From Candidatus Poribacteria bacterium (GTDB lineage: Bacteria > Poribacteria > WGA-4E > PCPOR2b): DNA of 64,000 nt. The DNA lies in contig OZ244587.1 in NCBI GenBank assembly GCA_965218095.1, positions 2,624,001-2,688,000 on the forward strand. Direction: 5' to 3'. Position numbers and translations under genes: made by a program. Of the stretch, positions 21,421-41,061 are shown one piece after another. Positions within the stretch are counted from its first letter, which is position 1; each line of letters begins with the position of its first letter. The notes beneath the pieces were generated by a model. That model saw only the letters and a program-made list of their open reading frames with translations, was not told the DNA's origin and searched no databases.

Positions 21421-22605
21421 CTATTCGGTTAGCATGAAATCTATCAAAAATTGATAGCTATCTATCACAAACAACTCGTCATCCACAACATCATTCTCAA
21501 ACAGATAATTCTCCTCAATGCGGTTTGTTCTGATAAGGATTTTCTTCCCAAAGCCTTTATTTTCACACGCCTTTTTGAGTAACGCTTTCGCCTCCTGTAT
21601 ACTCTCATGCTCTTTTTGAATTTTGATAGCAACGGATTTACCGTTATCGTCTTTCCTGAGAATGCCATCTATGCCCCTGTTATTCGGAACAACTCGTGCG
21701 TCCAATGTTTGAAGTATCGCCACTGTTTGACTGTCTCTGTTCCGGTGATTCCGGGTCTGAGTTTCCGAGACTTTGGACTCGCTCTTTATCGGATTTTCCA
21801 AGCGTTTTTGGGTCAAAGCAACTGCATCCGCCGAGACGTCTATCCCTATATACTTTCGATTGAGTAACTTTGCAGCGACGAGTGTTGTACCACTACCGCA
21901 AAACGGGTCGAGCACTGTATCGCCTGCATCAGTCACAAGTTCAATGATACGCTCCAAAAGAAGAATCGGTTTTTGCGTTGGATACCCGACGCGCTCCGTC
22001 GCTTTTGGGTTCAGATAAGGGATGTCCCAAACGTCTGTTAAAGGCACCCCTTTTTTGAACTTCCCGGAAATCACCTGACCACTCTCGTCTGTTCTATAGA
22101 CCGATTTACCGTTTTTATCTCTCTCTCTCTCTTGCAAAATCTGCTCAATGTTTGTTATTGGCGAATAATCGGTGAAAATTTTATTCAACTTATAACGAGC
22201 GGTTTTACTGTAGAAGTAAATCGTTTGATGAGTGTTCAATAACCCTCTTTTGGCATTAGACCATCGCCTGTAATGCCATATAATTTCACTTCTAAAGTTA
22301 GACACCCCGAACACATCATCCAGAATCAACCGCAAATGGTGTGATGCAGAGCGGTCACAATGTAAAAAGATGCTACCTGTCTCCTTTAAAACACTCGCAC
22401 ACTCGGAAATCCGCTCCTGTAGAAACCTTCGATACGCATCAACATTGTTCCAGCTATCGTGGAATTGATACACTTTAGAATTATCCCGTGTTTTTAGCCT
22501 TTGCGTCTTCTGTGTAAAAAACGGCGGATCAAGGCAGACTAAATCGACTGACGTAGCATCTATTTTTCTCATCTCAAAAAGACAGTCACCTTTATAGAGT
22601 GTCAT
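21421..22605 (-). CDS. Beta-class N4/N6 DNA methyltransferase
   Basis: DPPF precedes YPTQKP and DPFCGSGTT; AT-richer than the flanks. Confidence 0.92.
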   Translation of the reverse strand: MTLYKGDCLFEMRKIDATSVDLVCLDPPFFTQKTQRLKTRDNSKVYQFHDSWNNVDAYRRFLQERISECASVLKETGSIFLHCDRSASHHLRLILDDVFGVSNFRSEIIWHYRRWSNAKRGLLNTHQTIYFYSKTARYKLNKIFTDYSPITNIEQILQERERDKNGKSVYRTDESGQVISGKFKKGVPLTDVWDIPYLNPKATERVGYPTQKPILLLERIIELVTDAGDTVLDPFCGSGTTLVAAKLLNRKYIGIDVSADAVALTQKRLENPIKSESKVSETQTRNHRNRDSQTVAILQTLDARVVPNNRGIDGILRKDDNGKSVAIKIQKEHESIQEAKALLKKACENKGFGKKILIRTNRIEENYLFENDVVDDELFVIDSYQFLIDFMLTE

Positions 22606-22681
22606 AGACCTAACTCCCAAAATAAACCGGCTGTGAATCGCGTGAAAGCAGCAGATTAACTGTCCATTATCGGTGTTTATT

Positions 22682-23305
22682 TTATCTGTTTTCTTCAGCT
22701 ATCCGCGTTAAAATTGCCTGCAAATCAACATCAGTCTTTGTCCTCACATAACTCCAAGCACCATCTCCGGCGTAATATTCACCACCTAATCCGGTATAAA
22801 CAGTTTTTAGCGTGTCCTGAATCCTTATCGCCTGTGCACGGTTGGGATAGTAAAACATAATTCTTATGGGAATATATCCGGTTTCCTGAATGACTTTTGC
22901 CCGGGTGTGTTCTTTGGTGATATGGTCGCCATCCGTTGTGGCGTCACGCCATTTTATCTCAAAGGCTTCGTTACGAACTAAACAATCAATCTCAAATGTC
23001 TTCGGTCTTCGCCCAATGGTATTTGAAATTTTCACTTTGATTTGTGCATCAGAGAATTTACACTGAAAACATCGGATAACTGCTTCCTCCAGAAAAGAAC
23101 CGGCGTACCTTTAAAGGAATCGTCCCTTGTTCTGATAAAGGTCGATAAGTTCCCCTTCCTTGCTCGTTATCCCTAACACTTGATAAATGAGGTAATGGGT
23201 TTTATCGTCACCTTCCATCTCCGCCTTTCTCCCAGTAATTCTGGTTTTAAGCCTTTCTGCATATTCAGACGCAAGCCCTCTTATTTGTTGTTCGATTAAG
23301 CCCAT
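22682..23305 (-). pseudogene. ApaLI-like type II restriction endonuclease with a premature stop
   Basis: The two ORFs share a frame: YQNKGRFL*RYAGSFLEEA...FEIDCL...EIKWRDATTDGDHITKEH; TAA at 23111-23113. Confidence 0.85.
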
Positions 23306-23855: not shown

Positions 23856-24068
23856 AGTTTAGCCTTACGAATTCCCAAACCGCTCGCTCGCCAGATTGGG
23901 CTCGAACCCAATTCACCGGTCGGATTATCGCTCCGTGGTACAGAGTTAGTCATTGCACCTGTGAGGCAGCCCGGTTTGAAGCTGGAGGACCTTTTAGCCC
24001 AAGTGACGGAGCACAACTTGCACGGTGAAGTGGACACCGGGGACCCGCTAGGTGGTGAGGTATGGTGA
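23856..24068 (+). pseudogene. mazE: MazE/AbrB antitoxin, 5'-truncated
   Basis: SLALRIPKPLARQIGL...LEDLLAQVTEHNLHGEVDTGDPLGGEVW*; no in-frame start; overlaps the mazF start. Confidence 0.8.
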
Positions 24069-24502
24069 AGTCAACCGAGTACATCCCACAGCGCGGCGAT
24101 GCAATATGGATTAACTTCAATCCGCAAGCGGGGCATGAGCAAGCCGGACATCGCCCCGCCGTTGTGCTCTCACCAGGGGCTTATAACAGCAAGGCTAGTT
24201 TGGCGATTCTCTGCTTAATTACCAATCAAGTGAAGGGGTATCCTTTTGAGGTCGCTATCCCTGCGGGGCTGGATCTGACAGGTGTGATTCTGGCAGATCA
24301 GGTCAAGAGCATGGATTGGCGGGCGAGAAATGCCGTGTTGATATGTCCTTTGCCCACGGAGACAGTCGATGCGATTTTACCCGCACAGGTTTTGAACTCA
24401 AGATTACAGAAACGCATTGACGCCGATCCCCGAATCAAGGAGCGATTCCTCAGCGGCATTCCAAGTGGTCAATTCGGCAGTCCCGACGACATCCACGGCT
24501 AG
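24062..24502 (+). CDS. mazF: MazF/PemK endoribonuclease with C-terminus fused to an SDR remnant; probably damaged
   Basis: YIPQRGD, FNPQAGHEQAGHRPAVVLSP, KGYPFEV, DQVKSMDW. Confidence 0.8.
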   Translation: MVKSTEYIPQRGDAIWINFNPQAGHEQAGHRPAVVLSPGAYNSKASLAILCLITNQVKGYPFEVAIPAGLDLTGVILADQVKSMDWRARNAVLICPLPTETVDAILPAQVLNSRLQKRIDADPRIKERFLSGIPSGQFGSPDDIHG

Positions 24503-28969: not shown

Positions 28970-31900
28970 ATGCAAATTAATCGCGACCGGACCCGTCAAC
29001 TCCTGAGAGACTTTGAATTTAAATCCCTCCTAGTTGAAGAACTCGGTTGGGACCGTCACAGAGGAGAGGTCAAAACTGAAATCCGAGAAAAGGGGGTTGA
29101 TGAAACCGAATATTCATTGACCGCAATTGCCCAAAAACACGGAATGGCTGTCTTTCACTGTTCGGCAAGAATCGATGGGAGGATTCCAGATTATGCGACC
29201 CGGCGTAAAATTCAACGGGAGGTTGCCAAATCTGTCTACGAACACCTCATCATTTACACTGACGCTGAGAAGACCACACAGATCTGGCAGTGGGTCAAAC
29301 GGGAGCAAGGGAAGCCCCTTGCATGTCGTGAACAATCCTATCGTCGCGAACAGTCCGGTGAGGCACTGATCCAAAAACTGAATACAATCGTTTTTAGCTT
29401 AGCAGAGGAAGAAGAAGGTCTCACGCTGCTGGACGTAACAAGCCGCGTTCGTGCAGCTTTTGACGTGGAACGCGTGACCAAACGATTTTATGACCGTTTC
29501 AAAACGGAACACGCCCGGTTTCTCAACTTTCTCGAAGGAATTCCTGATCAAGAGATGCAACGCTGGTACGCTTCGGTGATGCTGAATCGCCTGATGTTCA
29601 TCTACTTTATCCAGAAGAAAGGTTTCCTGAACAACAACCCGGATTATTTGCGGACCAAACTGGCAAAAAGTAAAACAAACGGTAGAGATCAATACTACAC
29701 TGCTTTTCTCTGTCCACTATTCTTTGAGGGGTTTGCGAAACCGGAGTCCGAACGGAGCAGAGAGGCGAAGCGGCTGCTCGGAAAAGTGCCTTACCTGAAC
29801 GGCGGTATCTTTCAGCGACACCAACTTGAGGAACTCCATGTCGAAGACTCTCGGAACGGAGGGGAAAGGATTCAGATTCCTGACGCTGCATTTGAGGGGC
29901 TTTTTAATTTCTTTGAGGCGTACCAATGGCACCTCGACGAGCGTCCACTGCGGAACGATAACGAGATTAACCCAGATGTCCTCGGCTACATCTTTGAAAA
30001 ATATATCAACCAGAAGCAGATGGGCGCGTACTACACCAAGGAGGACATCACGGAGTATATCAGCAAAAATACGGTGATTCCGTTTCTCTTTGATGCTGCG
30101 CGAAAGAAGTGTAAAATCGCTTTCGAGGGGAAGGCAAGCCTCTGGCAATTGCTAGGAACCGACCCAGACCGTTACATCTACGATGCCGTCAAAACGGGTA
30201 TCGAATCGGATCTGCCGCCGGAGATCGCCGCAGGGATCGACGATGTATCTAAACGCGGACTGTGGAACACGTCTGCGCCCGATAAATATGCTTTACCGAC
30301 GGAGATATGGCGAGAGGTCGTCGCACGGCGGAGTCAATACGAATCAATTCACGCTAAACTTTCAAACGGAGAAATAGATGACATCAACGCCCTCATTACT
30401 TATAACCTCGACATCCGCCAATTCGCACACGACGTAATTGAAAATTGTGAGGGACCCGAGTTGCTACGCGCCTTCTGGAAAGCCATCAATCAGGTGACCA
30501 TCCTTGATCCGACCTGCGGTTCCGGGGCGTTCCTGTTTGCTGCCCTCAATATCCTTGAACCACTCTACGAAGCATGTCTGGATCGGATGGAGGTCTTTCT
30601 TGAAGAGTTAGAACATACCCGCGAAAAGCCGCGTACCGAAAGATTTAGGGATTTCCGCAAAGTTCTTGAAGATATTGAGCAGCACCCAAATCGCCGTTAT
30701 TTCATTCTCAAGTCAATTATTGTCAACAATCTCTACGGTGTAGACATTATGGAGGAGGCGATAGAGATTTGTAAGTTGCGGCTCTTCCTCAAAATGGTGG
30801 CACAGATCGAGGATGTAGATCAGATTGAACCGCTTCCTGACATCGACTTTAACATACAAGCGGGGAATACGCTCGTCGGATATGCGACATACAACGAGGT
30901 GGAAAAAGCGGTCACCGAGAAGTTAGACTTTGATAATACGATGACACGCATTAAAGAAGGGGCGGAAGACGTCAAGCAGTTGTTTGATCGGTTTCGTGAG
31001 CAGCAGACGGAATTGGGCGGTGCCGTAACACCTGATGACAAACAGGCGTTGCGGGATAAACTCAAGGTGTTAGAAGATGAACTCAACCGTTACCTTGCCG
31101 GAGAATACGGCGTAGATCCGAATAAAGGATCTGCTTACCAGAATTGGCTCTCTTCGCACAAGCCGTTCCACTGGTTCATTGAGTTTTACGGAATTCTCAA
31201 GGACGGTGGGTTTAATGTAATTATTGGAAATCCACCGTATGTTTCTATTCGGAAAATAGACTATACATCTAGTCTTGAAGAAAGACTAAAGTTACCCGAC
31301 TTATACGGTTATGTCTTGATTCGGACCCTTGATCTGAGCTCCGATAATGGAAGAAATGGTATGATAATACCGTTGTCTATTACTTTCAGCCGTGATTTTT
31401 CACTATTACGCGAGAGTTTATATATTGAAGGAATCTCTTGGTTTTCGTCTTTTGACAATATCCCGGCCTCAATATTTGCAGGGGTTAGCCAAAGGTGTAC
31501 TATTTGGATAGGCTGCAAGTGCAAGTCTATAGAACGCGCCTGCTTTTCAAGCCCTATGTATCGTTGGCGTTCGATCACAAGATCCTGCTTAATAGATAGA
31601 ATAAATTATGTAAAAATCGCCTGGGAAAATAACAAGGTATTGGGGATCCCTAAAATCCATGATACCGTTCTTTCCAAAGTTCTTGATGTGATAGATGTTA
31701 GAACACACAAACCGTCTCAACGCGTTTTCGCATTACCAAAAGAAACTTCATTATCTCTCTATTTTTCGCCCTCGGCACGCAACTTTATCTCAGTTTTTAA
31801 ATCTGAACCTCCCTGTTTAGATGCCCATACGCTTGAAATAGTATCTTCTTCCTCAGTCCAAAAAGTCAACTTACACAGAAAAACAAACATCAACTCTGCA

Positions 31901-32440
31901 TTAGTGGTTCTTTCAGGAGAGATATTTTTTTGGTATTGGTTAGTCCGAGGAGATGGATTCCATTTAACAACTGGAGATGTTTCAAACTTTCTTAAAGTCC
32001 TTGGACAACTCTCGCCTGAATATCAAGAATATTTGGGCATGTTAGGTGCATGTTTGCACAATAGACGATATGAAGCCTTAGTATTCAAAAAGAATGCTGG
32101 AAAATATGTTGGAAATTTTAATTACCGAAGTCAATTTCCCATTACGCGAAGATCTGATTTGCTGCTTTTAGCCGGTTTAGATCTGGATAAAAATATAGCA
32201 CTAGCGATTTTTGATAATGTGCAGCGTATTTTATCTATCAACGAATTTGCAGGTGAAAAATCTATACCACAAGCGGTTAAACAAAAATTTCCTCCCTCGA
32301 ATATTGATTCTAATCTGGAGTCTGATATTTTTGATCAATTAGATCGCCTGATTGTTGACCATTACAACTTCACCGACGAAGAATTAGACTTCATCATCAA
32401 CTACGACATCAAATATCGGATGGGATTGGGAAATGACTGA
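28970..32440 (+). CDS. Eco57I-like (type IIG-related) N6-adenine DNA methyltransferase with C-terminal target recognition domain
   Basis: VPYLNGGIF, GAYYT, DPTCGSGAF, LYGVDI, GNPPY, terminal YNFTDEELDFI. Confidence 0.92.
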   Translation: MQINRDRTRQLLRDFEFKSLLVEELGWDRHRGEVKTEIREKGVDETEYSLTAIAQKHGMAVFHCSARIDGRIPDYATRRKIQREVAKSVYEHLIIYTDAEKTTQIWQWVKREQGKPLACREQSYRREQSGEALIQKLNTIVFSLAEEEEGLTLLDVTSRVRAAFDVERVTKRFYDRFKTEHARFLNFLEGIPDQEMQRWYASVMLNRLMFIYFIQKKGFLNNNPDYLRTKLAKSKTNGRDQYYTAFLCPLFFEGFAKPESERSREAKRLLGKVPYLNGGIFQRHQLEELHVEDSRNGGERIQIPDAAFEGLFNFFEAYQWHLDERPLRNDNEINPDVLGYIFEKYINQKQMGAYYTKEDITEYISKNTVIPFLFDAARKKCKIAFEGKASLWQLLGTDPDRYIYDAVKTGIESDLPPEIAAGIDDVSKRGLWNTSAPDKYALPTEIWREVVARRSQYESIHAKLSNGEIDDINALITYNLDIRQFAHDVIENCEGPELLRAFWKAINQVTILDPTCGSGAFLFAALNILEPLYEACLDRMEVFLEELEHTREKPRTERFRDFRKVLEDIEQHPNRRYFILKSIIVNNLYGVDIMEEAIEICKLRLFLKMVAQIEDVDQIEPLPDIDFNIQAGNTLVGYATYNEVEKAVTEKLDFDNTMTRIKEGAEDVKQLFDRFREQQTELGGAVTPDDKQALRDKLKVLEDELNRYLAGEYGVDPNKGSAYQNWLSSHKPFHWFIEFYGILKDGGFNVIIGNPPYVSIRKIDYTSSLEERLKLPDLYGYVLIRTLDLSSDNGRNGMIIPLSITFSRDFSLLRESLYIEGISWFSSFDNIPASIFAGVSQRCTIWIGCKCKSIERACFSSPMYRWRSITRSCLIDRINYVKIAWENNKVLGIPKIHDTVLSKVLDVIDVRTHKPSQRVFALPKETSLSLYFSPSARNFISVFKSEPPCLDAHTLEIVSSSSVQKVNLHRKTNINSALVVLSGEIFFWYWLVRGDGFHLTTGDVSNFLKVLGQLSPEYQEYLGMLGACLHNRRYEALVFKKNAGKYVGNFNYRSQFPITRRSDLLLLAGLDLDKNIALAIFDNVQRILSINEFAGEKSIPQAVKQKFPPSNIDSNLESDIFDQLDRLIVDHYNFTDEELDFIINYDIKYRMGLGND

Positions 32441-32837: not shown

Positions 32838-32964
32838 GAGGAGACTTTGATCACATTTATAGGGCGCAATGTTGAAACAGGCTGGCTTATAAGTCGTAAG
32901 GAAGTCAAACACTAGACGAAAACGGCAGTGGTTGAAACCATCAAAAACCGAAAAAAGAAATAGA

Positions 32965-33303
32965 ATGCGTGTTGTACAAACAAGAGAGCTAGAAATCTAC
33001 CGCGACGCAAACGGTCGAGCACCTTACATCAAATGGTTTGAATCAATTCGAGATCTAAAGACGCGAACTCAAATTCAATCCCGAATTGACCGCATCAAAT
33101 CCGGTAATTTAGGCGATTACAAATCCGTTGGAGACGATGTATTTGAACTCCGCTTTCGATCTGGTCCCGGCTATCGAATCTATTTTGGACAAGTAGGTAA
33201 TACCATTGTGTTGCTCCTCTGCGGCGGGGACAAATCTTCGCAAGACAGAGATATTAGACGAGCAAAAGCCTATTGGCAGGAATACAAGGAGGTGCCAAAA
33301 TGA
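32965..33303 (+). CDS. RelE/ParE-superfamily toxin (addiction-module killer, HigB/HI1419-like)
   Basis: GNLGDYKSVGDDVFELR, GPGYRIYF, LLLCGGDKSSQDRDI. Confidence 0.92.
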   Translation: MRVVQTRELEIYRDANGRAPYIKWFESIRDLKTRTQIQSRIDRIKSGNLGDYKSVGDDVFELRFRSGPGYRIYFGQVGNTIVLLLCGGDKSSQDRDIRRAKAYWQEYKEVPK

Positions 33304-34649
33304 GACAAATGATAAAATACCGCGATTACCTAGTCGGAAGACTTGCCGATTGCGAAGAGGCAATCGCCTATCTTCAAACCTCCCTAGAAGAATACCAAAA
33401 AGACGGTGACGCTGTTGCATTTTTGATAGCACTCCAAAGCATCGCCGAAGCGCAGGCAGGGAACAACGAACTCGCTTCCCAAGTCTATTTATTGAGCGGC
33501 GGAGTTCACCGCTCACGAGGGGAGTATGACTGGGCGATTGAAGACTATAATACAGTGATAAAACTGACTAACACAATGATAGAAATGAATCCCAATAATG
33601 TTGAAGCCTATATCCGCCGTGGCATGGCTTACCACTACAAAGGCGAGTATGGCTCCACCATTGAAGACTTTACCAAAGCAATAGAACTGGATCCAAGCAT
33701 ACCTCAACTCTATTTAGCGCGAGGCATGGCTTACCACCAGAAATGCGAGTATGGCTCCGCCATTGAAGACGCTACTAAAGCATTAGAACTGAATCCTGAT
33801 AATGCCGAGGCCTATGTGCATCGCGGTCTGGCTTATCAGAGCAAAGGTGATTATGACCGTAGCAAGGACGATTATGACCGCGCCATCGCAGACTTTACCA
33901 AAGCAATAGACCTGAACCCCAATGATACCAACGCGTATTGCGGTCGTGGCTACGCTTACCAGAGCAGAGGTGATTATGACCGTAGCAAAGGCGATTATGA
34001 CCGCGCCATCGCAGACTTTACCAAAGCAACAGACCTGAACCCCAATGATGCCAGAGCCTATTGTGGCCGCGGTTACGCACGTCAAAGCAAAGGCGATTAT
34101 GACGATGCCATCGCAGACTGTACCAAAGCGGTAGCACTGAACCCCAATGATGCCAAAGTCTATAACCATCGCGGAGTTGTCTATTATCACAAAGGCGATT
34201 ATGACGATGCTATCACAGACTTTACCAAAGCGATAGCACTGGATCCCAATTATGCCAAACCCTATAATAGTCGCGGGGCTGTCTATTGTGATAAAGGCGA
34301 AGTTGATCTTGCCATCGTGGACCTGAACAGGGCGATACAACTCAACCCTGATTATGCCGACGCCTATTACAATCGTGGTCTAACTTACGGGGTCAAAGGC
34401 GATTATGACGATGCCATCGTAGACTATAACAAAGCGATAGCACTGAATCCCAATTATGCCGACGTTTATAACAATCACTGGACAGCGCGGTTACACCCGG
34501 AAGTACACGAAGAAACCAGATCAGACCAAACGGCTGCCAGAGACATGGGGAGAAATATCATTACTCCGTTTCATGACGCTTACGAAAACGTCCCGGGTGT
34601 GAATCTGCCGGAAGAAATCGCTGCAATACTGATACCCCCGCAGGCATGA
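33300..34649 (+). CDS. Addiction-module antidote N-terminal domain fused to a TPR array
   Basis: ATGA overlap with the toxin, AAGGAGG RBS; EEAIAYLQTSLEEYQKDGDAVAFLIALQSIAEAQ then about ten AYxxRG...AIxDxxKAIxLxP repeats. Confidence 0.88.
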   Translation: MRQMIKYRDYLVGRLADCEEAIAYLQTSLEEYQKDGDAVAFLIALQSIAEAQAGNNELASQVYLLSGGVHRSRGEYDWAIEDYNTVIKLTNTMIEMNPNNVEAYIRRGMAYHYKGEYGSTIEDFTKAIELDPSIPQLYLARGMAYHQKCEYGSAIEDATKALELNPDNAEAYVHRGLAYQSKGDYDRSKDDYDRAIADFTKAIDLNPNDTNAYCGRGYAYQSRGDYDRSKGDYDRAIADFTKATDLNPNDARAYCGRGYARQSKGDYDDAIADCTKAVALNPNDAKVYNHRGVVYYHKGDYDDAITDFTKAIALDPNYAKPYNSRGAVYCDKGEVDLAIVDLNRAIQLNPDYADAYYNRGLTYGVKGDYDDAIVDYNKAIALNPNYADVYNNHWTARLHPEVHEETRSDQTAARDMGRNIITPFHDAYENVPGVNLPEEIAAILIPPQA

Positions 34650-34680
34650 ATGTTGACAAAATGATGTATTCCGATTTTTA

Positions 34681-34925
34681 CGAAACGAACCCAAACGCGT
34701 CGGTGTGTCGGAATTGTCGGAAAGCTCTAATGGGCGCAAGCTCAAACCTCAATAACTGTAGTGAACGGTAGTTATACAAAGCACTGAATAAATAGGAAGA
34801 TTTGCAACAGCGGCGGAAAGCGGAAGGGCGATAGCCGTTTTTTGCGAAACGAACCCAAACCGCGTCGGTGTGTCGGAATTGTCGGAAAACGTAGTGGGTG
34901 CAGGCTCATAACTCAAGAACTGTAG
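34681..34925. repeat. Two ~81-bp direct repeats (34681-34761, 34845-34925)
   Basis: Both begin cgaaacgaacccaaac(c)gcgtcggtgtgtcggaattgtcggaaa and end aactgtag. Confidence 0.8.
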
Positions 34926-35006
34926 GATACTCAATTTGTTGGACGCTTTTTAGTAAACCCGCGCCGCAACCCAACTTTTTCGTTTGAGGAGTGAAAGATC
35001 GTAACT

Positions 35007-35798
35007 ATGCAACCAATACAACAAATATTCCCAAAGCTATTCTCAATGTTTTCAGATGCAGATGATTTACTCAGTCTTGAACCAGAGGAACTTGCCGGAC
35101 GGCTCTTACTATCTTTAGAGGGCAATGATCGCATCATTCGGGACAACGTTATCTCATCTGAGCTTATGTCAATATCATTCGAGTCCATGCCAGAGATGCG
35201 TCAAAAGTACCCCTCTGGCCGTGACAATGAAATTCTCTTTGCACTCATGGAAGCTTGGCAGTGGTTGGAGCGTGAAGGGTTTATTGCCCCAAGACCAACT
35301 AGCTTAGTGGGCGAATCGTCCCCAGGTGGAATAGATGTATACTTCGTTACCCGACGAGGCAAAAGAATCGAGGCGCCCGAGGACTTAGAGGCTTATCGCA
35401 AGGCAAACCTTTTACCTAAACGCCAACTTCACCCTATAATCGCTCAAAAAGTGTGGTCGCCGTTCTTACGAGGAGACTATGATGATGCTGTTTTTCAAGC
35501 ATTCAAAGAGGTCGAAATCGCTGTCCGCAAAGCTGGAGGTTACGCTAAGCATTATGGTGTCTCTCTGATGCGTAAAGTATTTGATGTCTCAAAGGGTGAG
35601 TTAACCAATCCCGATCCTGATCCTGATCAACCGGAGGCAGAAAAGCAGGCTTTATCAGACCTATTTGCTGGGGCAATTGGCTCTTATAAAAACCCCCACA
35701 GTCACCGAAATGTTCCTGTTACTACAGAAGAAGCAGTTGAGATGATAATCCTTGCAAGTCATCTTCTGCGGATAGTTGATTCACGTAAACCGGCTTGA
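35007..35798 (+). CDS. TIGR02391 (Ymh-like) family protein with an N-terminal extension
   Basis: LHPII, GDYDDAVFQAFKEVEIAVR, YGVSLMRKVF, LFAGAIGSYKNPHSH. Confidence 0.85.
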   Translation: MQPIQQIFPKLFSMFSDADDLLSLEPEELAGRLLLSLEGNDRIIRDNVISSELMSISFESMPEMRQKYPSGRDNEILFALMEAWQWLEREGFIAPRPTSLVGESSPGGIDVYFVTRRGKRIEAPEDLEAYRKANLLPKRQLHPIIAQKVWSPFLRGDYDDAVFQAFKEVEIAVRKAGGYAKHYGVSLMRKVFDVSKGELTNPDPDPDQPEAEKQALSDLFAGAIGSYKNPHSHRNVPVTTEEAVEMIILASHLLRIVDSRKPA

Positions 35799-35959
35799 AA
35801 AGGGGTGGTCATAATTAACCCATATCAAGGCAATTGGAGAAAAACTGAGTTTTTCATTCGTGCATCACCCACCATATCTCAATTGAGCTGATTTGGCCTG
35901 AAATAAATACTTCGGCCAACTCAACAACAATTGAAACATGGTTCGAGGAGGTGATTAGA

Positions 35960-36106
35960 GTGGCAAGAGAAAGAACCGTCAAATACCCACCCAAACGAGG
36001 GAGGCTCAAAAGAAGCGAGGTTAAACGGGTAGTAGAAAAGGTTGTTCTTGGTAGGCGCGGAAATGGAGAGGCGGGGCAGACACGCCAACCGAAAAACAAG
36101 AAATAG
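35960..36106 (+). CDS. Putative 48-aa basic microprotein
   Basis: GAGGAGGTG RBS then GTG; MARERTVKYPPKRGRLKRSEVKRVVEKVVLGRRGNGEAGQTRQPKNKK; below the ORF-track cutoff. Confidence 0.45.
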   Translation: MARERTVKYPPKRGRLKRSEVKRVVEKVVLGRRGNGEAGQTRQPKNKK

Positions 36107-36220
36107 TTTCCCTTACCTCTTTTCTTTCAAAGCCCATCATTAACCATAACCGTATGAGATTGGGAAGTGATTCAAACAAGGTTGAGTGAATATTAAGGAT
36201 TGATTTACAAAGGATTCGGT

Positions 36221-36583
36221 ATGAGAGAAACCGAACAGGACCAGGAAAAACCTCTAGATTGGGTTGGTTCATCACACAAAGATTTGAAGAAATTTCCCGC
36301 AGAGGTTCAAGATGAAATGGGGTACGCGCTTTATGTTGCACAAATTGGGGATAAGCACCCAAAAGCTAAACCGTTAAAGGGATTTTCGGGCGTCATGGAA
36401 ATCCGAAGTAATTACGCAAGTGATACCTATCGGGCTGTGTACACTACCAAAATCGGCGATAGAATTTATGTGCTACACGCTTTTCAAAAGAAATCCAAAA
36501 GAGGCATCCAAACACCGAAGAAAGAAATCGGTCTCATCAAACGCCGATTGAAGCAAGCTCAGGAATTAGCGCAAGGAGGATAG
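36221..36583 (+). CDS. RelE/HigB-family toxin (Gp49/DUF891-like)
   Basis: KPLDWVGSS, AKPLKGF, VMEIR, TYRAVY, YVLHAFQKKSKRGIQTP. Confidence 0.92.
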   Translation: MRETEQDQEKPLDWVGSSHKDLKKFPAEVQDEMGYALYVAQIGDKHPKAKPLKGFSGVMEIRSNYASDTYRAVYTTKIGDRIYVLHAFQKKSKRGIQTPKKEIGLIKRRLKQAQELAQGG

Positions 36584-36586
36584 ATC

Positions 36587-37921
36587 ATGACAGACTATAC
36601 CCCCGGTTCAGGAAACGTTTTTAAGGATTTAGAACTTCCCTCACCCAATGAAAGATTGGCAAAAGCAAAACTTGCATATAAAATCAACCGCTTGATTGCT
36701 GATCAGGGCATGATTCAAAAGAGAGCTGCGGATTTTTTGGGAATAAGCCGATCAAAAATGACGGCACTGAGAAACGGTCGTTTGAAGAACTTTAGCATTG
36801 ACTATTTGGGTTCTCTATTGGGAAAATTGGATCCACATACTGACCTCGATGCTCAAGGTTATGTGCGACGCGCTATTGAGGCATACCACAAAGGCGAGTA
36901 TGGCTCCGCCATTGAAGACTTTACCAAAGCAATAGAACTGGATCCAAGCATACCTCAACTCTATTTAGCGCGAGGCATGGCTTACCACCAGAAATGCGAG
37001 TATAGCTCCGCCATTGAAGACGCTACTAAAGCATTAGAACTGAATCCTGATAATGCCGAGGCCTATGTGCATCGTGGTCTAGCTTATCAGAGCAAAGGTG
37101 ATTATGACCGTAGCAAGGGTGATTATGACCGCGCCATCGAAGACTTTACCAAAGCAATAGAACTGAACCCTAATGATACCAATGCGTATTGCGGTCGTGG
37201 CCACGCTTACCAGAGCAAAGGTGATTATAATCGTAGCAAAGACGATTATGACCGCGCCATCGAAGACTTTACCAAAGCAATAGAACTGAACCCTAATGAT
37301 ACCAGAGCCTATTGTGGTCGCGGTTACGCCCATCAAAGCAAAGGCGATTATGGCGATGCCATCGAAGACTGTACCAAAGCGGTAGCACTGGATCCCAATG
37401 ATGCCAAAGCCTATAACCATCGCGGCATTATCTATTATTACAAAGGTGATTATGACCGTGCCATTGAAGACTTTAATAGAGCGATACAACTCAAACCCAA
37501 TTATGCCCAAGCCTATAATAGTCGCGGGGCTGTCTATTGTGCTAAAAGCGAAGTTGACCGTGCCATTGTGGATTTTAACAGGGCAATACAACTCAACACT
37601 GATTATGCCGAGGCTTATTACAACCGTGGCGTAGCTTACAGGGTCAAGGGCTTGGTTGACCGCGCCATTGAAGACTATAACAGGGCGATACAACTCAAAC
37701 CCAATTATGCCGACGTTTATAAAAATCACTGGGAGGCGTGGTTACACCCAAAAGTACGCGAAGAAACCAGATCAGACCAAACGACTGCCAGAGACATGAG
37801 CAGAAATATCATCACTTCGTCTTATAACGACTCGTCTTATAACGACTACAACAACAGCCCAGGTGTGAATCCGCCAAAAGGAAACACTACAATTGACATT
37901 TCCGCAGGCGTGAATGTTTAA
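36587..37921 (+). CDS. XRE/HTH_37 (HigA-like) antitoxin fused to a TPR array
   Basis: GSGNVFKDL, AKAKLAYKI, QKRAADFLGISRSKMTALRNGRLKNFSIDYL, then about nine TPRs. Confidence 0.9.
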   Translation: MTDYTPGSGNVFKDLELPSPNERLAKAKLAYKINRLIADQGMIQKRAADFLGISRSKMTALRNGRLKNFSIDYLGSLLGKLDPHTDLDAQGYVRRAIEAYHKGEYGSAIEDFTKAIELDPSIPQLYLARGMAYHQKCEYSSAIEDATKALELNPDNAEAYVHRGLAYQSKGDYDRSKGDYDRAIEDFTKAIELNPNDTNAYCGRGHAYQSKGDYNRSKDDYDRAIEDFTKAIELNPNDTRAYCGRGYAHQSKGDYGDAIEDCTKAVALDPNDAKAYNHRGIIYYYKGDYDRAIEDFNRAIQLKPNYAQAYNSRGAVYCAKSEVDRAIVDFNRAIQLNTDYAEAYYNRGVAYRVKGLVDRAIEDYNRAIQLKPNYADVYKNHWEAWLHPKVREETRSDQTTARDMSRNIITSSYNDSSYNDYNNSPGVNPPKGNTTIDISAGVNV

Positions 37922-37936
37922 AGGAGTACCCTAGGC

Positions 37937-39229
37937 ATGTCGAAAGAAACGGTCGAAGGCATCACCAAGATAGTTGTGAGCGGTTTCAAGTCGCTCGCGG
38001 AAGAGTGTGCAATCGACATCCGTCCGCTGACGATCCTTGCCGGCGCGAATAGCTCCGGGAAATCGAGCATCATGCAACCGCTCTTGATGCTGAAGCAGAC
38101 GCTGGAGGCACCGTATGATCCGGGCCCGCTGCTGATTGATGGACCAAACGTTCAGTTTACTGAGGCAACGCAATTTTTGTCCGCACTACCTAACGGAAAA
38201 AGAACAGATCGTTTTCAGATTCAGATTCAGACTCATAAATCTAATGTTTCCAATGCAGTGCGAACGACTTTCAGAAAGGGAAAGAATGGGATTGAAATTG
38301 TCGAAATGACGAAAGAAAATTTAGACCCCGATCAAGCGTTATCTACCAAGTCCCTTACATTATATCCAGAGATGTCGTCTGAAGAAATCAAGTCGCTAGG
38401 TAATCAAGATCCGGCATTCAAGAATTTTGATATAGTGAAGCGTTCGCGCTGTTTTTTGTATTTGGGATCTCAGTATAGTAGTGGGTTCTATGAGGTTACT
38501 TATGGCTTTGGGGCATATATTTTTAATACCATCCACCTACCCGGATTGCGAGGCAATCCAGAACGCACCTACAAACCTGCCAGCACCGGTCCCCGGTATC
38601 CCGGTACATTTGAAAATTATGTTGCGAGTATCATCCATGATTGGCAGGAGACGGAGGATGATCGTCTGAAAACATTAGCCGATGCCCTCTATACCCTTGG
38701 ACTGACAGGGCGGGTCGGTACAAAAAAAATCGATGACACTCGCATTGAACTTCAAGTTGGCCGCCTTCTTCACCGCGGAACCGGCGAAACGGACATGGTC
38801 AGCATCGCCGATGTGGGATTCGGTGTGTCTCAAGTCTTGCCCATTTTAGTCGCCCTGATTGTCGCCGAGCCGGGGCAGTTGGTCTATCTCGAACAGCCTG
38901 AGATGCATCTCCATCCCCGCGCACAGGTCGCGTTGGCGCAAGTGTTAGCAGATGCGGCGCAACGTGGCGTCCGTGTCGTCGCGGAAACGCACAGTTCGCT
39001 GCTGCTTCTGGCGATTCAAACGCTTGTTGCCGAAGGAAGCCTCTCGCCGGAACTGGTGAGGCTGCATTGGTTCACACGGCGCGAAGATGGTGCCACCGAA
39101 ATCAACACCGCCGATTTGGACGAGGTGGGTGCTTACGGGGATTGGCCCGAAGACTTTGATGATGTTGATCTGAAGACGCAGAGCCGTTATCTAAACGCAG
39201 CCCAATCGCGTCTGGCTGAAAGAGCATAA
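37937..39229 (+). CDS. ABC-type (AAA_15/AAA_21, DUF3696-like) ATPase
   Basis: GFKSL, GANSSGKSS Walker A, VGFGVSQVLP signature, YLEQPEMHLHP, ETHS, DWPEDF. Confidence 0.9.
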   Translation: MSKETVEGITKIVVSGFKSLAEECAIDIRPLTILAGANSSGKSSIMQPLLMLKQTLEAPYDPGPLLIDGPNVQFTEATQFLSALPNGKRTDRFQIQIQTHKSNVSNAVRTTFRKGKNGIEIVEMTKENLDPDQALSTKSLTLYPEMSSEEIKSLGNQDPAFKNFDIVKRSRCFLYLGSQYSSGFYEVTYGFGAYIFNTIHLPGLRGNPERTYKPASTGPRYPGTFENYVASIIHDWQETEDDRLKTLADALYTLGLTGRVGTKKIDDTRIELQVGRLLHRGTGETDMVSIADVGFGVSQVLPILVALIVAEPGQLVYLEQPEMHLHPRAQVALAQVLADAAQRGVRVVAETHSSLLLLAIQTLVAEGSLSPELVRLHWFTRREDGATEINTADLDEVGAYGDWPEDFDDVDLKTQSRYLNAAQSRLAERA

Positions 39230-39230
39230 T

Positions 39231-39788
39231 ATGCGGTCAAGGAATTTCAAGCGGCTCGTTGTGGATGCCTCAGTGGCCTTGGCTGCCGGTGGCGGAGAAG
39301 CAACAGATTCAGACGTGGAAGCAAAGAATTTAGTATCAATCAACTGCACCGAATTTCTCGAAACCTTTCGGTACAAATGTCTGCATCACATCGTGATGAC
39401 ACCAGAGATTTCCGAGGAATGGAATAGACATCAATCGAAATTTACGACCACGTGGCTGAGGTCAATGGTCGCTAGAAAGAGATTCGATTATGTCAAACCT
39501 TCCGTGAACAAAGCGTTGCACGACAAAATCGAAAAGACAACAACCCGCGAAACTGAAATTGAGGTGATGCGAAAAGATTTTCACCTCCTCGAAGCGGCAC
39601 TGGCAACCGACCAGACCATCATTTCGCTTGATGAAACCATCCGGCGGCTTTTCGCCCGCACCGCTGAACGTGTTGGTGAAATCCGGGACATTGTTTGGGT
39701 GAATCCTGACCATACAGAGGAAGATGAACCACTCGATTGGCTCCAAAACGGTGCACCGCCGGAAAATCATCGTAAACTCCGCGCTTGA
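39231..39788 (+). CDS. PIN-like domain protein
   Basis: RLVVDASVA, KDFHLLEAAL and IISLD acidic motifs; starts 1 nt after the ATPase stop. Confidence 0.7.
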   Translation: MRSRNFKRLVVDASVALAAGGGEATDSDVEAKNLVSINCTEFLETFRYKCLHHIVMTPEISEEWNRHQSKFTTTWLRSMVARKRFDYVKPSVNKALHDKIEKTTTRETEIEVMRKDFHLLEAALATDQTIISLDETIRRLFARTAERVGEIRDIVWVNPDHTEEDEPLDWLQNGAPPENHRKLRA

Positions 39789-39855: not shown

Positions 39856-40551
39856 GTGACGCATCCAATTGAACGCATCACACAAAGGGATCCCAATTAC
39901 CCAGCGCAGTTGCGGGGGTATTTGAAAACAGAAGCCCCAGAAATTATCTGGGCGCGGGGGAATGTTGCCCTGCTGACGGATCGGGACACCGGCCCCGATA
40001 AGATCGGTTCCGTTCCGAGAATCCCGACTTGTCGGGAGATTCAAAGCAACTTAAACGGAAACCTCTGGGCACTCTTCTGTTCCAGCAAATGTCCCGCCCA
40101 GATTATCTTGAAAACGCATGAATTGGCTCAGCAATTTCGGGAATCAGGGATACCCACCATAGGAGGTTATCATTCCCCGGTTGAGCGGGAATGCCTTCGC
40201 GTCTTGCTGCGGGGGTCACAACCGATTATCCTATGTCCCGCCCGGAGTATCGAAAACATGCGACCGAGACCAGAGTGGAAAGGGGCATTAGCCGAGGGGC
40301 GTCTGTTAATCCTATCTATTTTTGATAGCAAACATCGGCGATCGACCGCAGCATTGGCAAGCCAACGCAACGCATTTGTTGCGGCACTTGCGGACAAGAT
40401 ATGTATCGCCCATGCCTCGGAAGGTGGTAAGACTCTGCAATTCGCACATCAGGTATTGGAATGGGGCAAACCCCTTTTCACCTTTGACACACCAGCAAAC
40501 AAATCGCTTTTTCAATGCGGCGCGCAGCCGATAGAAAGCCCCTGTCTCTGA
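39856..40551 (+). CDS. DprA/Smf-like (SLOG superfamily) protein, short form
   Basis: DPNYPAQL, ALFCSSKCP, GGYHSPVERECL, QRNAFVAALAD, GGKT. Confidence 0.8.
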   Translation: MTHPIERITQRDPNYPAQLRGYLKTEAPEIIWARGNVALLTDRDTGPDKIGSVPRIPTCREIQSNLNGNLWALFCSSKCPAQIILKTHELAQQFRESGIPTIGGYHSPVERECLRVLLRGSQPIILCPARSIENMRPRPEWKGALAEGRLLILSIFDSKHRRSTAALASQRNAFVAALADKICIAHASEGGKTLQFAHQVLEWGKPLFTFDTPANKSLFQCGAQPIESPCL

Positions 40552-40804: not shown

Positions 40805-41061
40805 TTAGCAATTGTAGCAGTAGAGCTCACCAATCACGGGCGAAGCCAAGAACACTTTCTCAGTGTCTCTCATTCCCTCTTGTACCACCACCTCACCGGC
40901 AAACAGCGCAATAATGATGTTTGTATCCAGCAGATCCTTATCCGCTGTGCCCTTTGGATGTGCGCCCAAAAGTGCCCGCGTGAAATCCAAAACCTTTCCC
41001 TGTAGTGCGTGAGCCCCTCCAAGTGCTTTATAATCTGCTGAGTGGTCATCGAATCAGCCAT
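40805..41061 (-). pseudogene. vapBC-like remnant (antitoxin fragment joined to a PIN N-terminus)
   Basis: LLDTNIIIALF...SPVIGELY PIN start, truncated; preceded by a frameshifted small-protein fragment. Confidence 0.65.

Follow-up and report, generated by a model that had tools for sequence, protein, structure and literature searches.

A shared tetratricopeptide repeat-tail module on the antitoxins of two unrelated toxin-antitoxin pairs in Candidatus Poribacteria, a candidate regulator or sensor

Toxin-antitoxin (TA) systems are more and more regarded as switches of phage defence, and their means of sensing infection is known in very few cases. CapRelSJ46 is described as a single fused toxin-antitoxin polypeptide whose antitoxin domain is itself the sensor of a phage protein, without repeats (PMC9712102). 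Here we analyse a locus (positions 32965-37921) in a window of 64,000 nt from Candidatus Poribacteria (assembly GCA_965218095.1, contig OZ244587.1, positions 2,624,001-2,688,000, forward strand), in which two TA pairs have antitoxins ending in a common array of tetratricopeptide repeats (TPRs) and a helical tail, together called the cassette below. Positions are those of the window unless they are given as genome positions. An earlier note on this DNA, made from the sequence, had proposed that the repeats sense a ligand and release the toxins. CapRel, where an antitoxin element is reported to sense a phage protein and to free a translation-targeting toxin, corresponds to that model; sensing by the cassette is here only proposed.

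Two concepts already in print come close to the locus. Panacea (PanA, DUF4065) is reported as a hyperpromiscuous antitoxin domain found with many unrelated toxins, including Doc and RelE-like RNases (PMC8832971, PMC10440598), and in some PanA proteins a separate Phd-C segment is said to neutralise Doc, with Panacea as an accessory domain (PMC10440598). The locus resembles Panacea, as these papers present it, in that one domain is partnered with unrelated toxin families, in a layout of a head or a C-terminal extension plus the TPR-tail part. It is unlike Panacea in that the shared part is a TPR superhelix with a helical tail and not DUF4065, and in that this part also occurs in cis on TIR and FRG domains. 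DUF4065/Panacea gave no match among the best 25 of the 28 and of the 32 Pfam families per protein, or in the separately scanned heads and tails, and 'TPR' has 0 occurrences in the main text of PMC8832971 and of PMC10440598. In the ParA-TPR ternary TA systems, HigB-HigA and Gp49-helix-turn-helix (HTH) pairs are described as joined to a TPR 'sensor', and an immunity-linked cell-death switch is proposed (bioRxiv 10.64898/2026.10.19.760177). The TPRs of those systems are described on a third protein behind a ParA NTPase, whereas here they stand on the antitoxin itself. No ParA family member was observed among the genes scanned between 21421 and 47306, and the neighbouring NTPase, unlike that of the ParA-TPR systems, is of the ABC/AAA_21 type and doubtfully linked to the TA pairs. 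Full-text literature searches returned no antitoxin-TPR fusion; the supplements of the ParA, Menshen and NetFlax papers may list such proteins, and a HicA preprint mentions a TPR gene as a neighbour only. The view of the earlier note that no system of this architecture had been described therefore stands for these searches, with the qualification that Panacea and the ParA-TPR systems are close as concepts.

RNPP/AimR regulators combine an HTH domain with a TPR-like peptide receptor. The second antitoxin of the locus follows the same order, with an N-terminal XRE-type HTH and then a C-terminal TPR array that could bind a peptide. It differs from these regulators in having canonical 34-residue TPRs and a paired toxin gene, and the first antitoxin has no HTH. 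No RNPP chain was found among the PDB matches of the antitoxin 2 head at E up to 1, and a signalling-peptide gene was not searched for. TIR is a common effector of Avs/STAND-type receptors. Proteins with the cassette are like these receptors in carrying a C-terminal repeat array on effector-bearing proteins, and such C-terminal repeats are reported to sense invaders in STAND proteins (PMC7159879). Unlike Avs/STAND, neither the two antitoxins nor their TIR and FRG paralogues showed a STAND or other NTPase domain in Pfam scans.

The genome is one contig of 6.35 Mb. Comparisons were made with a phylum set of 176 genomes, whose nearest records are named Candidatus Poribacteria and some Latescibacterota; by the record names the phylum is a sponge symbiont group. 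The locus holds four open reading frames (ORFs), namely toxin 1, a 449-aa protein, toxin 2 and a 444-aa protein, which are all intact and lie on the + strand, as the earlier note had them. Both long proteins consist of a toxin-specific head, described first, and the shared cassette.

Toxin 1 (32965..33303, +, 112 aa) is a RelE/ParE-family protein of the upstrm_HI1419 type, matching TIGR02683 in NCBIfam with E 2.9e-36 and 123.7 bits, the cut-off being 62.85. It keeps 28 of the 28 invariant columns of a 28-sequence family alignment, and its family is widespread in the phylum (about 650 matches in 144/176 genomes, up to 12 per genome). No real match to toxin 1 was found among PDB sequences. Its stop overlaps the start of the 449-aa ORF (33300-34649) as ATGA at 33300-33303 on the same strand. 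Both this coupling and the HI1419-type assignment of the earlier note are confirmed. The head of this ORF (antitoxin 1 head, 33300..33476, +) corresponds in the family alignment to the N-terminal part of a dnstrm_HI1420-type antitoxin (its initial ~59 residues) and lacks the HTH recognition helix. Its match to Pfam dnstrm_HI1420 (PF21716) is weak (E 0.073, profile positions 12-53 of 90), and a whole-genome search for the dnstrm_HI1420-type family found one other gene and missed antitoxin 1. The assignment is carried by relatives: among the 29 best loci of toxin 1 homologues in the phylum, 23 have a 104-151-aa antitoxin downstream, and the antitoxin 1 head is 37-66% identical over ~60 aa to such canonical antitoxins, one of which matches TIGR02684 with E 4.9e-7, below the family cut-off. 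In an alignment of 23 antitoxins, 18 of them canonical 104-151-aa proteins of the same clade, the fusion point falls after residue ~59 and the TPRs stand in place of the HTH recognition helix and the C-terminal strand. Antitoxin 1 is thus not the full ~90-100-aa dnstrm_HI1420 form with HTH, and the antidote N-terminus seen by the earlier note is retained for its first ~59 residues, with the recognition helix and the C-terminus replaced. Since the HTH half has given way to TPRs, antitoxin 1 has very probably lost DNA binding.

Modelling of complexes, suggested earlier for each pair, was carried out for toxin 1 with antitoxin 1 residues 1-95. Three runs gave an interface score (ipSAE) of 0.83, 0.83 and 0.84, as against 0.00 for the controls (best of 3). 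The mark used for this score was reached by 58/80 solved complexes and 2/110 mismatched pairs, which is a rough guide only, as the alignments were own-made. The runs share at least 93% of their contacts, the partner has a pLDDT of 91, and the predicted toxin 1 interface is formed mostly by antitoxin 1 residues 2-49. RelE/ParE-antitoxin complexes are generally known, so the score may partly reflect memory; no like complex was found in the PDB by sequence. The model supports binding of toxin 1 by the antitoxin 1 head, that is, by the retained N-terminus.

Toxin 2 (36221..36583, +, 120 aa) is Gp49/HigB-like and covers the whole Pfam Gp49 profile (1-90/90, E 1.6e-23, 83 bits against a gathering score of 23.9). 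It is unrelated to toxin 1 by BLASTP, the best alignment being 11 aa with E 0.023. The 444-aa ORF (36587-37921) starts 3 nt past the toxin 2 stop and opens with a complete HTH_37 domain (antitoxin 2 head, 36587..36850, +; Pfam E 8.6e-15 over residues 11-86; 53.4 bits, cut-off 27), which matches PDB 2o38 with E 8.4e-15. The earlier note was therefore right in describing two unrelated toxins, the second of Gp49 type and followed by a protein with HTH_37 and TPRs. With 444 aa, 8-9 TPRs and a tail, antitoxin 2 departs from the small single-domain form of ~100 aa; a canonical Gp49 paralogue with a 109-aa antitoxin is found at genome positions 5433165-5433844. Truncated remnants of both antitoxin heads also occur elsewhere in the genome (1472591-1472785, 64 aa; 4130391-4130540, 49 aa, beside large genes).

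Behind these heads the two proteins are alike. In antitoxin 1 the TPR array (33477..34481, +; Pfam TPR_1 E 2e-86, 9 stretches) has one degenerate and 8 canonical repeats, two of them being 41 aa, and in antitoxin 2 (36851..37732, +; E 3.5e-80, 9 stretches) it has 8 canonical repeats. In both, the canonical repeats are followed by a non-TPR helical tail of ~57 residues that closes the protein. The tail of antitoxin 1 (34482..34649, +), aligned with 6 paralogous tails, consists of a TPR-like hairpin and three short helices with an LP-x-E-I-A-A-I-L motif at the end; that of antitoxin 2 (37733..37921, +; tail profile E 4.0e-29) is conserved in its first half and diverged in its C-terminal half. 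The 449-aa and 444-aa proteins are 75% identical along 365 aa that begin with the first full TPR and reach almost to the C-terminus, and by our own local alignment their cassettes are 80% identical over 337 aa and mutually nearest among ten compared. The earlier note had seen the same TPR array on both; the shared part is larger than that, as it also includes the conserved tail. A paralogous tail modelled with two TPRs (pLDDT 95.2) shows a last TPR-like hairpin and then three short helices, and a Foldseek search of this model against the PDB returned consensus and peptide-binding TPRs only (top 1na0, 3kd7, 2wqh). The Atlas look-up of the tail was uninformative. NCBIfam TPR_END_plus (NF047558) was rejected as an identity for the tail, as it matches the TPR part only, over positions 1-34 to 1-38 of 56.

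The likeness extends to the DNA. Two tracts of 232-300 nt are 92% identical between the arrays (33598-33897 with 36849-37148, and 33869-34100 with 37120-37351), and the remainder is far less alike. Across genomes the cassettes of both head types are intermixed and do not cluster by head, and the first half of the antitoxin 2 tail is closer to type-1 tails than to the tails of its own orthologues. In two relatives (P0008, L091) a type-1 head is followed by a hybrid array that reads in frame into the neighbouring ATPase gene, a form that is the expected remnant of a deletion between two arrays. These comparisons bear out the earlier reading of one cassette on two unrelated antitoxin heads, and they support the view that the cassette is a mobile, exchangeable unit, swapped between genes by recombination. 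Concerted evolution of the two genes, which are neighbours at a distance of 3.3 kb, accounts for at least part of the resemblance between their cassettes.

The cassette has other partners in this genome. A profile built from seven tails detects 8 copies, and 8/8 lie in two islands with type IIG restriction genes. The defence setting implied by the earlier note is upheld. The six copies outside the locus lie within 20 kb (3.517-3.537 Mb of the genome) and comprise two TIR_2-TPR-tail proteins, two FRG-TPR-tail proteins, one TPR-tail protein after a free FRG gene, and one with further C-terminal parts. The free FRG gene stands directly before the TPR-tail-only gene and is possibly the other half of a split fusion. 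The TIR domain matches the Thoeris ThsB model (E 4.2e-23) and the FRG domain the candidate system PDC-S15 (E 3e-33). In this second island (L001, L002; genome 3514001-3541000) the six copies are accompanied by two Eco57I-type restriction-methylase genes, an AAA_21-DUF4435 gene and a PD-(D/E)XK+TPR fragment.

One TIR-TPR-tail protein of the second island, of 507 aa (L001:2908-4844; genome 3516908-3518841), carries a 45-residue extension after the tail, and its gene overlaps by 25 nt a gene for a Doc toxin (TIGR01550, E 8.2e-12, 45.4 bits, cut-off 38.65). Doc homologues are present in 107/176 phylum genomes. At 26 of the 29 best other Doc loci an overlapping upstream gene encodes TPRs, the tail and the same C-terminal extension (98-507 aa, some cut by the locus edge), and the remaining 3/29 have an upstream protein of 69-87 aa made up of the extension only. 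The short Doc antitoxins of 98 aa contain 1-2 TPRs and half a tail. The cassette is, as judged from these sequences, a part of the predicted antitoxins of three unrelated toxin families: RelE/ParE-type, Gp49-type and Doc. The TIR, FRG and Doc-antitoxin partners strengthen the idea that it regulates toxic effectors. Two TPR-tail proteins (P0078, P0101) have another C-terminal extension, by eye like the C-terminus of Phd/YefM-type antitoxins.

Within the phylum the tail gave about 1,130 matches in 143/176 genomes, at 2-36 per genome. A search of 1.84 billion representative proteins with its profile gave 575 clusters (E up to 0.001), and 638 proteins were found in 90% clusters. When the 120 best tail proteins were compared by local BLAST, 51 had FRG, 23 TIR, 11 the Doc-type extension and 40 none of these; neither head of the window was found on any of the 120, and in 79 of them the tail lies at most 15 residues from the C-terminus. 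The TPR-tail module appears largely confined to one phylum. Among viral contigs there was 1 relative in 141 pattern matches, a 659-aa FRG-TPR-tail protein with a further C-terminal domain (L148:2657-4636, IMG/VR), ~2 kb from a tyrosine-recombinase fragment.

The fusions of the window are not limited to this assembly, a limitation that the earlier note would have counted against its reading. A TPR-tail fusion occurs at 10 of the 80 best HTH_37-head loci (337-629 aa), with a Gp49 gene just upstream in 9/10, and a head-TPR fusion stands downstream of toxin 1 in 6/29 loci, all of the window's own family. Several of the fusions are on chromosomes of 5-7 Mb. HTH_37 heads are also found with other parts: among the same 80 loci one is fused to a different part of ~450 aa with PF18728, six carry an extension of ~70 aa, and the rest are short. 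The PF18728 form, with a part of ~450-500 aa, was seen in P0001-P0003, P0006 and L053, and the ~70-aa extension in L027, L034, L036, L041, L049 and L057.

Our preferred reading, to which we give a probability of about 0.5, is that the locus consists of two genuine type II TA pairs, each with an antitoxin that bears the TPR-tail as a promiscuous accessory module, probably a protein-binding regulator or sensor. Each antitoxin would be a toxin-specific head joined to a common C-terminal cassette of 8-10 near-consensus TPRs and a ~57-residue tail. Judging from their families, the toxins would stop growth (as RNases, or in the case of toxin 1 possibly by gyrase poisoning) and the heads would neutralise them. 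The architecture and its company suggest that the TPR groove may bind a protein or peptide. This partner might come from a phage, or it might be a conserved one of the cell that is contacted by way of the tail. Its binding would set the stability, the oligomeric state or the availability of the antitoxin; the toxin, or a TIR or FRG domain in cis, would then be unleashed, and the infected cell would stop growing. Since the two cassettes are nearly the same, one trigger could fire both toxins. We favour sensing because the arrays are long and variable, the TPR part is the least conserved in 14 of the 16 fusion loci compared (in L089 the toxin is 86%, the head 81% and the cassette 50% identical), the repeats differ from one another mainly at groove positions, and TIR and FRG are among the partners. 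The 8 repeats within each protein differ mainly at helix-A positions 2, 5, 6, 9, 12 and 13, with 5-7 residue types at each. As a proposal, the sensor mechanism is plausible.

Several observations weigh against this reading. Gene conversion between the neighbouring genes, without any selection for a common ligand, would be enough to keep the cassettes nearly identical, and the antitoxin 2 tail has a short tandem duplication and has lost the terminal motif. Substitutions among homologues are only mildly enriched on the concave face (36% vs 22%), and variation is just as high at the convex positions 19, 22 and 29. Closely related heads are found both in short forms and in long ones that bear the cassette (79-83% identical), and hence the cassette is dispensable for a working antitoxin head. 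A look-up in PADLOC, which the earlier note had suggested, returned no model for the architecture beyond generic weak TPR hits. In the NetFlax experiment, as reported in PMC10440598, an inert SUMO tag could replace the accessory domain, from which it follows that such a domain need not sense anything.

This last result belongs equally to an explanation in which nothing is sensed at all: the TPR-tail part would be a stable folding, dimerising or solubilising body, and the pairs would be ordinary addiction modules that stabilise the island. We consider it unlikely, although it deserves to be taken seriously. The cassette would then have replaced the usual DNA-binding or dimerisation part in antitoxin 1 and the Doc antitoxin, whose place it does occupy, and would have been added to it in antitoxin 2. 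The 98-aa Doc antitoxins have just 1-2 TPRs and half a tail, the substitutions are spread over all exposed positions, and the TPRs are near to the designed consensus TPRs returned by Foldseek, which are very stable folds. Arrays of 8-15 repeats, in proteins of up to 629 aa, nevertheless far exceed what a stabiliser needs, TIR and FRG domains carry the cassette and need no antitoxin scaffold, the repeats diverge chiefly in the groove, and the strong conservation of the tail over its many copies suggests a specific partner. That the fusions are artefacts of assembly or annotation, or decaying pseudogenes, is something we regard as almost certainly wrong. Repeat arrays do pose problems for assembly, and four DNA runs gave Logan contigs that are short and break inside the TPR arrays; among those listed one bridges a head-TPR junction, and many show 'joints' between the two arrays whose sides are 20-35 nt, as repeats give. 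Truncated copies do exist as well, both the fragments elsewhere in the genome and a fusion copy of 142 aa in L054. Against this, the ORFs are intact, and a contig of an independent run spans the HTH-TPR junction (36601-36936) with zero differences. Misassembly of the fusions is excluded for practical purposes, because they recur on other chromosomes, the genome is a single contig and the junction is bridged in an independent run.

A further explanation starts from the genes that follow antitoxin 2: an ABC/AAA_21 ATPase (37937..39229, +; Pfam AAA_21 E 5.3e-26) that matches PADLOC NsnB of the Menshen system (E 2.2e-53, profile 2-334/345), a 185-aa protein, p185 (39231..39788, +), that is always paired with it and conserved in L009, L030, L031 and L054, and a DprA-like, PsyrA-like protein (39856..40551, +; Pfam DNA_processg_A E 2.5e-11, PADLOC PsyrA E 1.6e-19). 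The BECR-type RNase toxins could be detachable effectors of the NsnB-like ATPase and p185, with the TPR-antitoxin as sensor; we think this improbable. The locus is like Menshen (NsnABC), as PMC12065111 describes it, in the adjoining NsnB-like ATPase and in having BECR RNases of the Gp49/RelE kind, and NsnC is reported there to join an inactive PIN to BECR RNases including Gp49 and YoeB types. The ATPase lies directly downstream of L009 and of 5/6 antitoxin-1-type fusions, and for the sixth fusion the twin locus L035 indicates the same position; the TPRs of P0008 and L091 run in frame into it, and there is a weak similarity (E 0.002) between toxin 1 and the C-terminal region of NsnC. Unlike those of Menshen, however, the RNases here are free TA toxins and not C-terminal domains of NsnC, and no effector domain is recognised in p185. 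No NsnA (ParB-DUF262) gene was matched among the scanned neighbours. For p185 there is no Pfam, NCBIfam or PADLOC family, a PDB profile search gave nothing below E 0.45, and its AlphaFold model is unusable (pLDDT 48.3); it falls in an Atlas PIN cluster (0.91, 133 shared features), which makes its likeness to PIN a lead only and not an established feature. An ATPase is missing from the ~1.9 kb that follow 7 of the HTH_37-TPR fusions. The ATPase-p185 pair also occurs beside short antitoxins (L030, L031, L054), lies upstream in L030 and L031, and is separated from the antitoxin by another gene in L057. Relatives of the ATPase-p185(-DprA) block (L009, L030, L031, L054, L057) have ATPases 67-94% identical to that of the window, at 82-94% beside antitoxin-1-type fusions and in L009 and 67-71% beside short antitoxins. 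The TA cargo beside the block is short or TPR-fused, of either type, and sometimes includes other genes, and in several relatives the type IIG gene lies beyond it. Because the cargo varies beside a conserved ATPase block and seven HTH_37-TPR fusions have no ATPase downstream, we take the block to mark a hotspot of integration, of which it is the conserved flank; the ATPase may still be functionally tied to the TA pairs. The ATPase of L054 has a 175-aa N-terminal extension. The phylum being a sponge symbiont group, and sponge-microbiome papers naming TPR proteins as symbiosis factors, one may also suppose that these eukaryote-like TPR and TIR proteins act on sponge proteins and that the TA genes are incidental neighbours. 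This seems very improbable to us, as the repeats form one reading frame with antitoxin heads in which no signal sequence is seen by eye, the toxin genes show translational coupling, all eight copies in the genome stand beside restriction and defence genes, and three toxin families use the same design.

In Pfam and PADLOC scans of the window the two TA pairs sit in a variable slot of a defence island. The upstream edge of the slot is a type IIG restriction-methyltransferase (28970..32440, +; PADLOC REase_MTase_IIG E 4.2e-291). Between the pairs lies a gene for a Hypoth_Ymh (TIGR02391) protein (35007..35798, +; Pfam E 9.9e-26, PADLOC PD-Lambda-3_B E 8.5e-8), which we treat as context to the TA systems. 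It is followed by a 51-aa ORF (35951..36106, +) without a Pfam family, which seems to be a cut-down copy of an 87-aa gene found upstream of the toxins of relatives. Its tblastn matches lie upstream of toxin 1 or toxin 2 homologues in L009, L035, L054, L089, L090 and L099, and the full 87-aa form is at L035:4447-4710. Small ORFs of this kind, which are basic and in P0007 fused in frame to a type-1 head, could act as a leader or supply a third component. One contig in each of the four DNA runs joins 32944 to 36090, skipping 3145 nt with a side of only 24 nt; this joint may be a strain variant without the first TA pair, or a repeat effect. The scans of the window further show a truncated ApaLI-like endonuclease with its methylase, MazF and a PLD-SNF2 helicase. 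The endonuclease ORF (22682-23035) covers profile positions 89-189 of 189 only, and the adjoining N6_N4 methylase gene (21421-22620) is intact. The earlier note had taken neighbouring mazEF and vapBC loci for decayed, which was not confirmed: the MazF ORF (24062-24502) spans PemK profile positions 1-102/109, and the small ORFs at 40805-41061 taken for vapBC remnants match no Pfam family. Scans for promoters (13 found vs 11.4 expected) and for terminators (9 found vs 8.0 expected) were at chance level.

A bolder reading may be drawn from the phylum-wide picture, and we offer it tentatively, as one with the odds against it. The TPR-tail part could be the receptor of an NTPase-free, plug-in immunity family of sponge symbionts, in which one ligand-binding chassis gates any killing device joined to it, be it a TIR or FRG domain in cis or a RelE/ParE-, HigB- or Doc-type toxin tethered in trans by a short antitoxin leash. 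In the window, gene conversion would have kept the two antitoxins alike, and they would fire two different toxins on one trigger, which might be a phage protein or, in a symbiont, a host or population signal.

The finding matters chiefly because the TPR-tail module is so promiscuous, being shared throughout a phylum by three TA families and two effector domains. With three antitoxin types and two effector domains in one phylum, nature has provided a swap set with which the role of an accessory antitoxin domain can be probed. Should the module prove to be a scaffold only, it would be a second, independent case of the 'hyperpromiscuous' antitoxin design, as in Panacea. If it is a sensor, it would be a repeat-based immune receptor without an NTPase, linking TA biology and TIR-type immunity in an uncultured animal symbiont.

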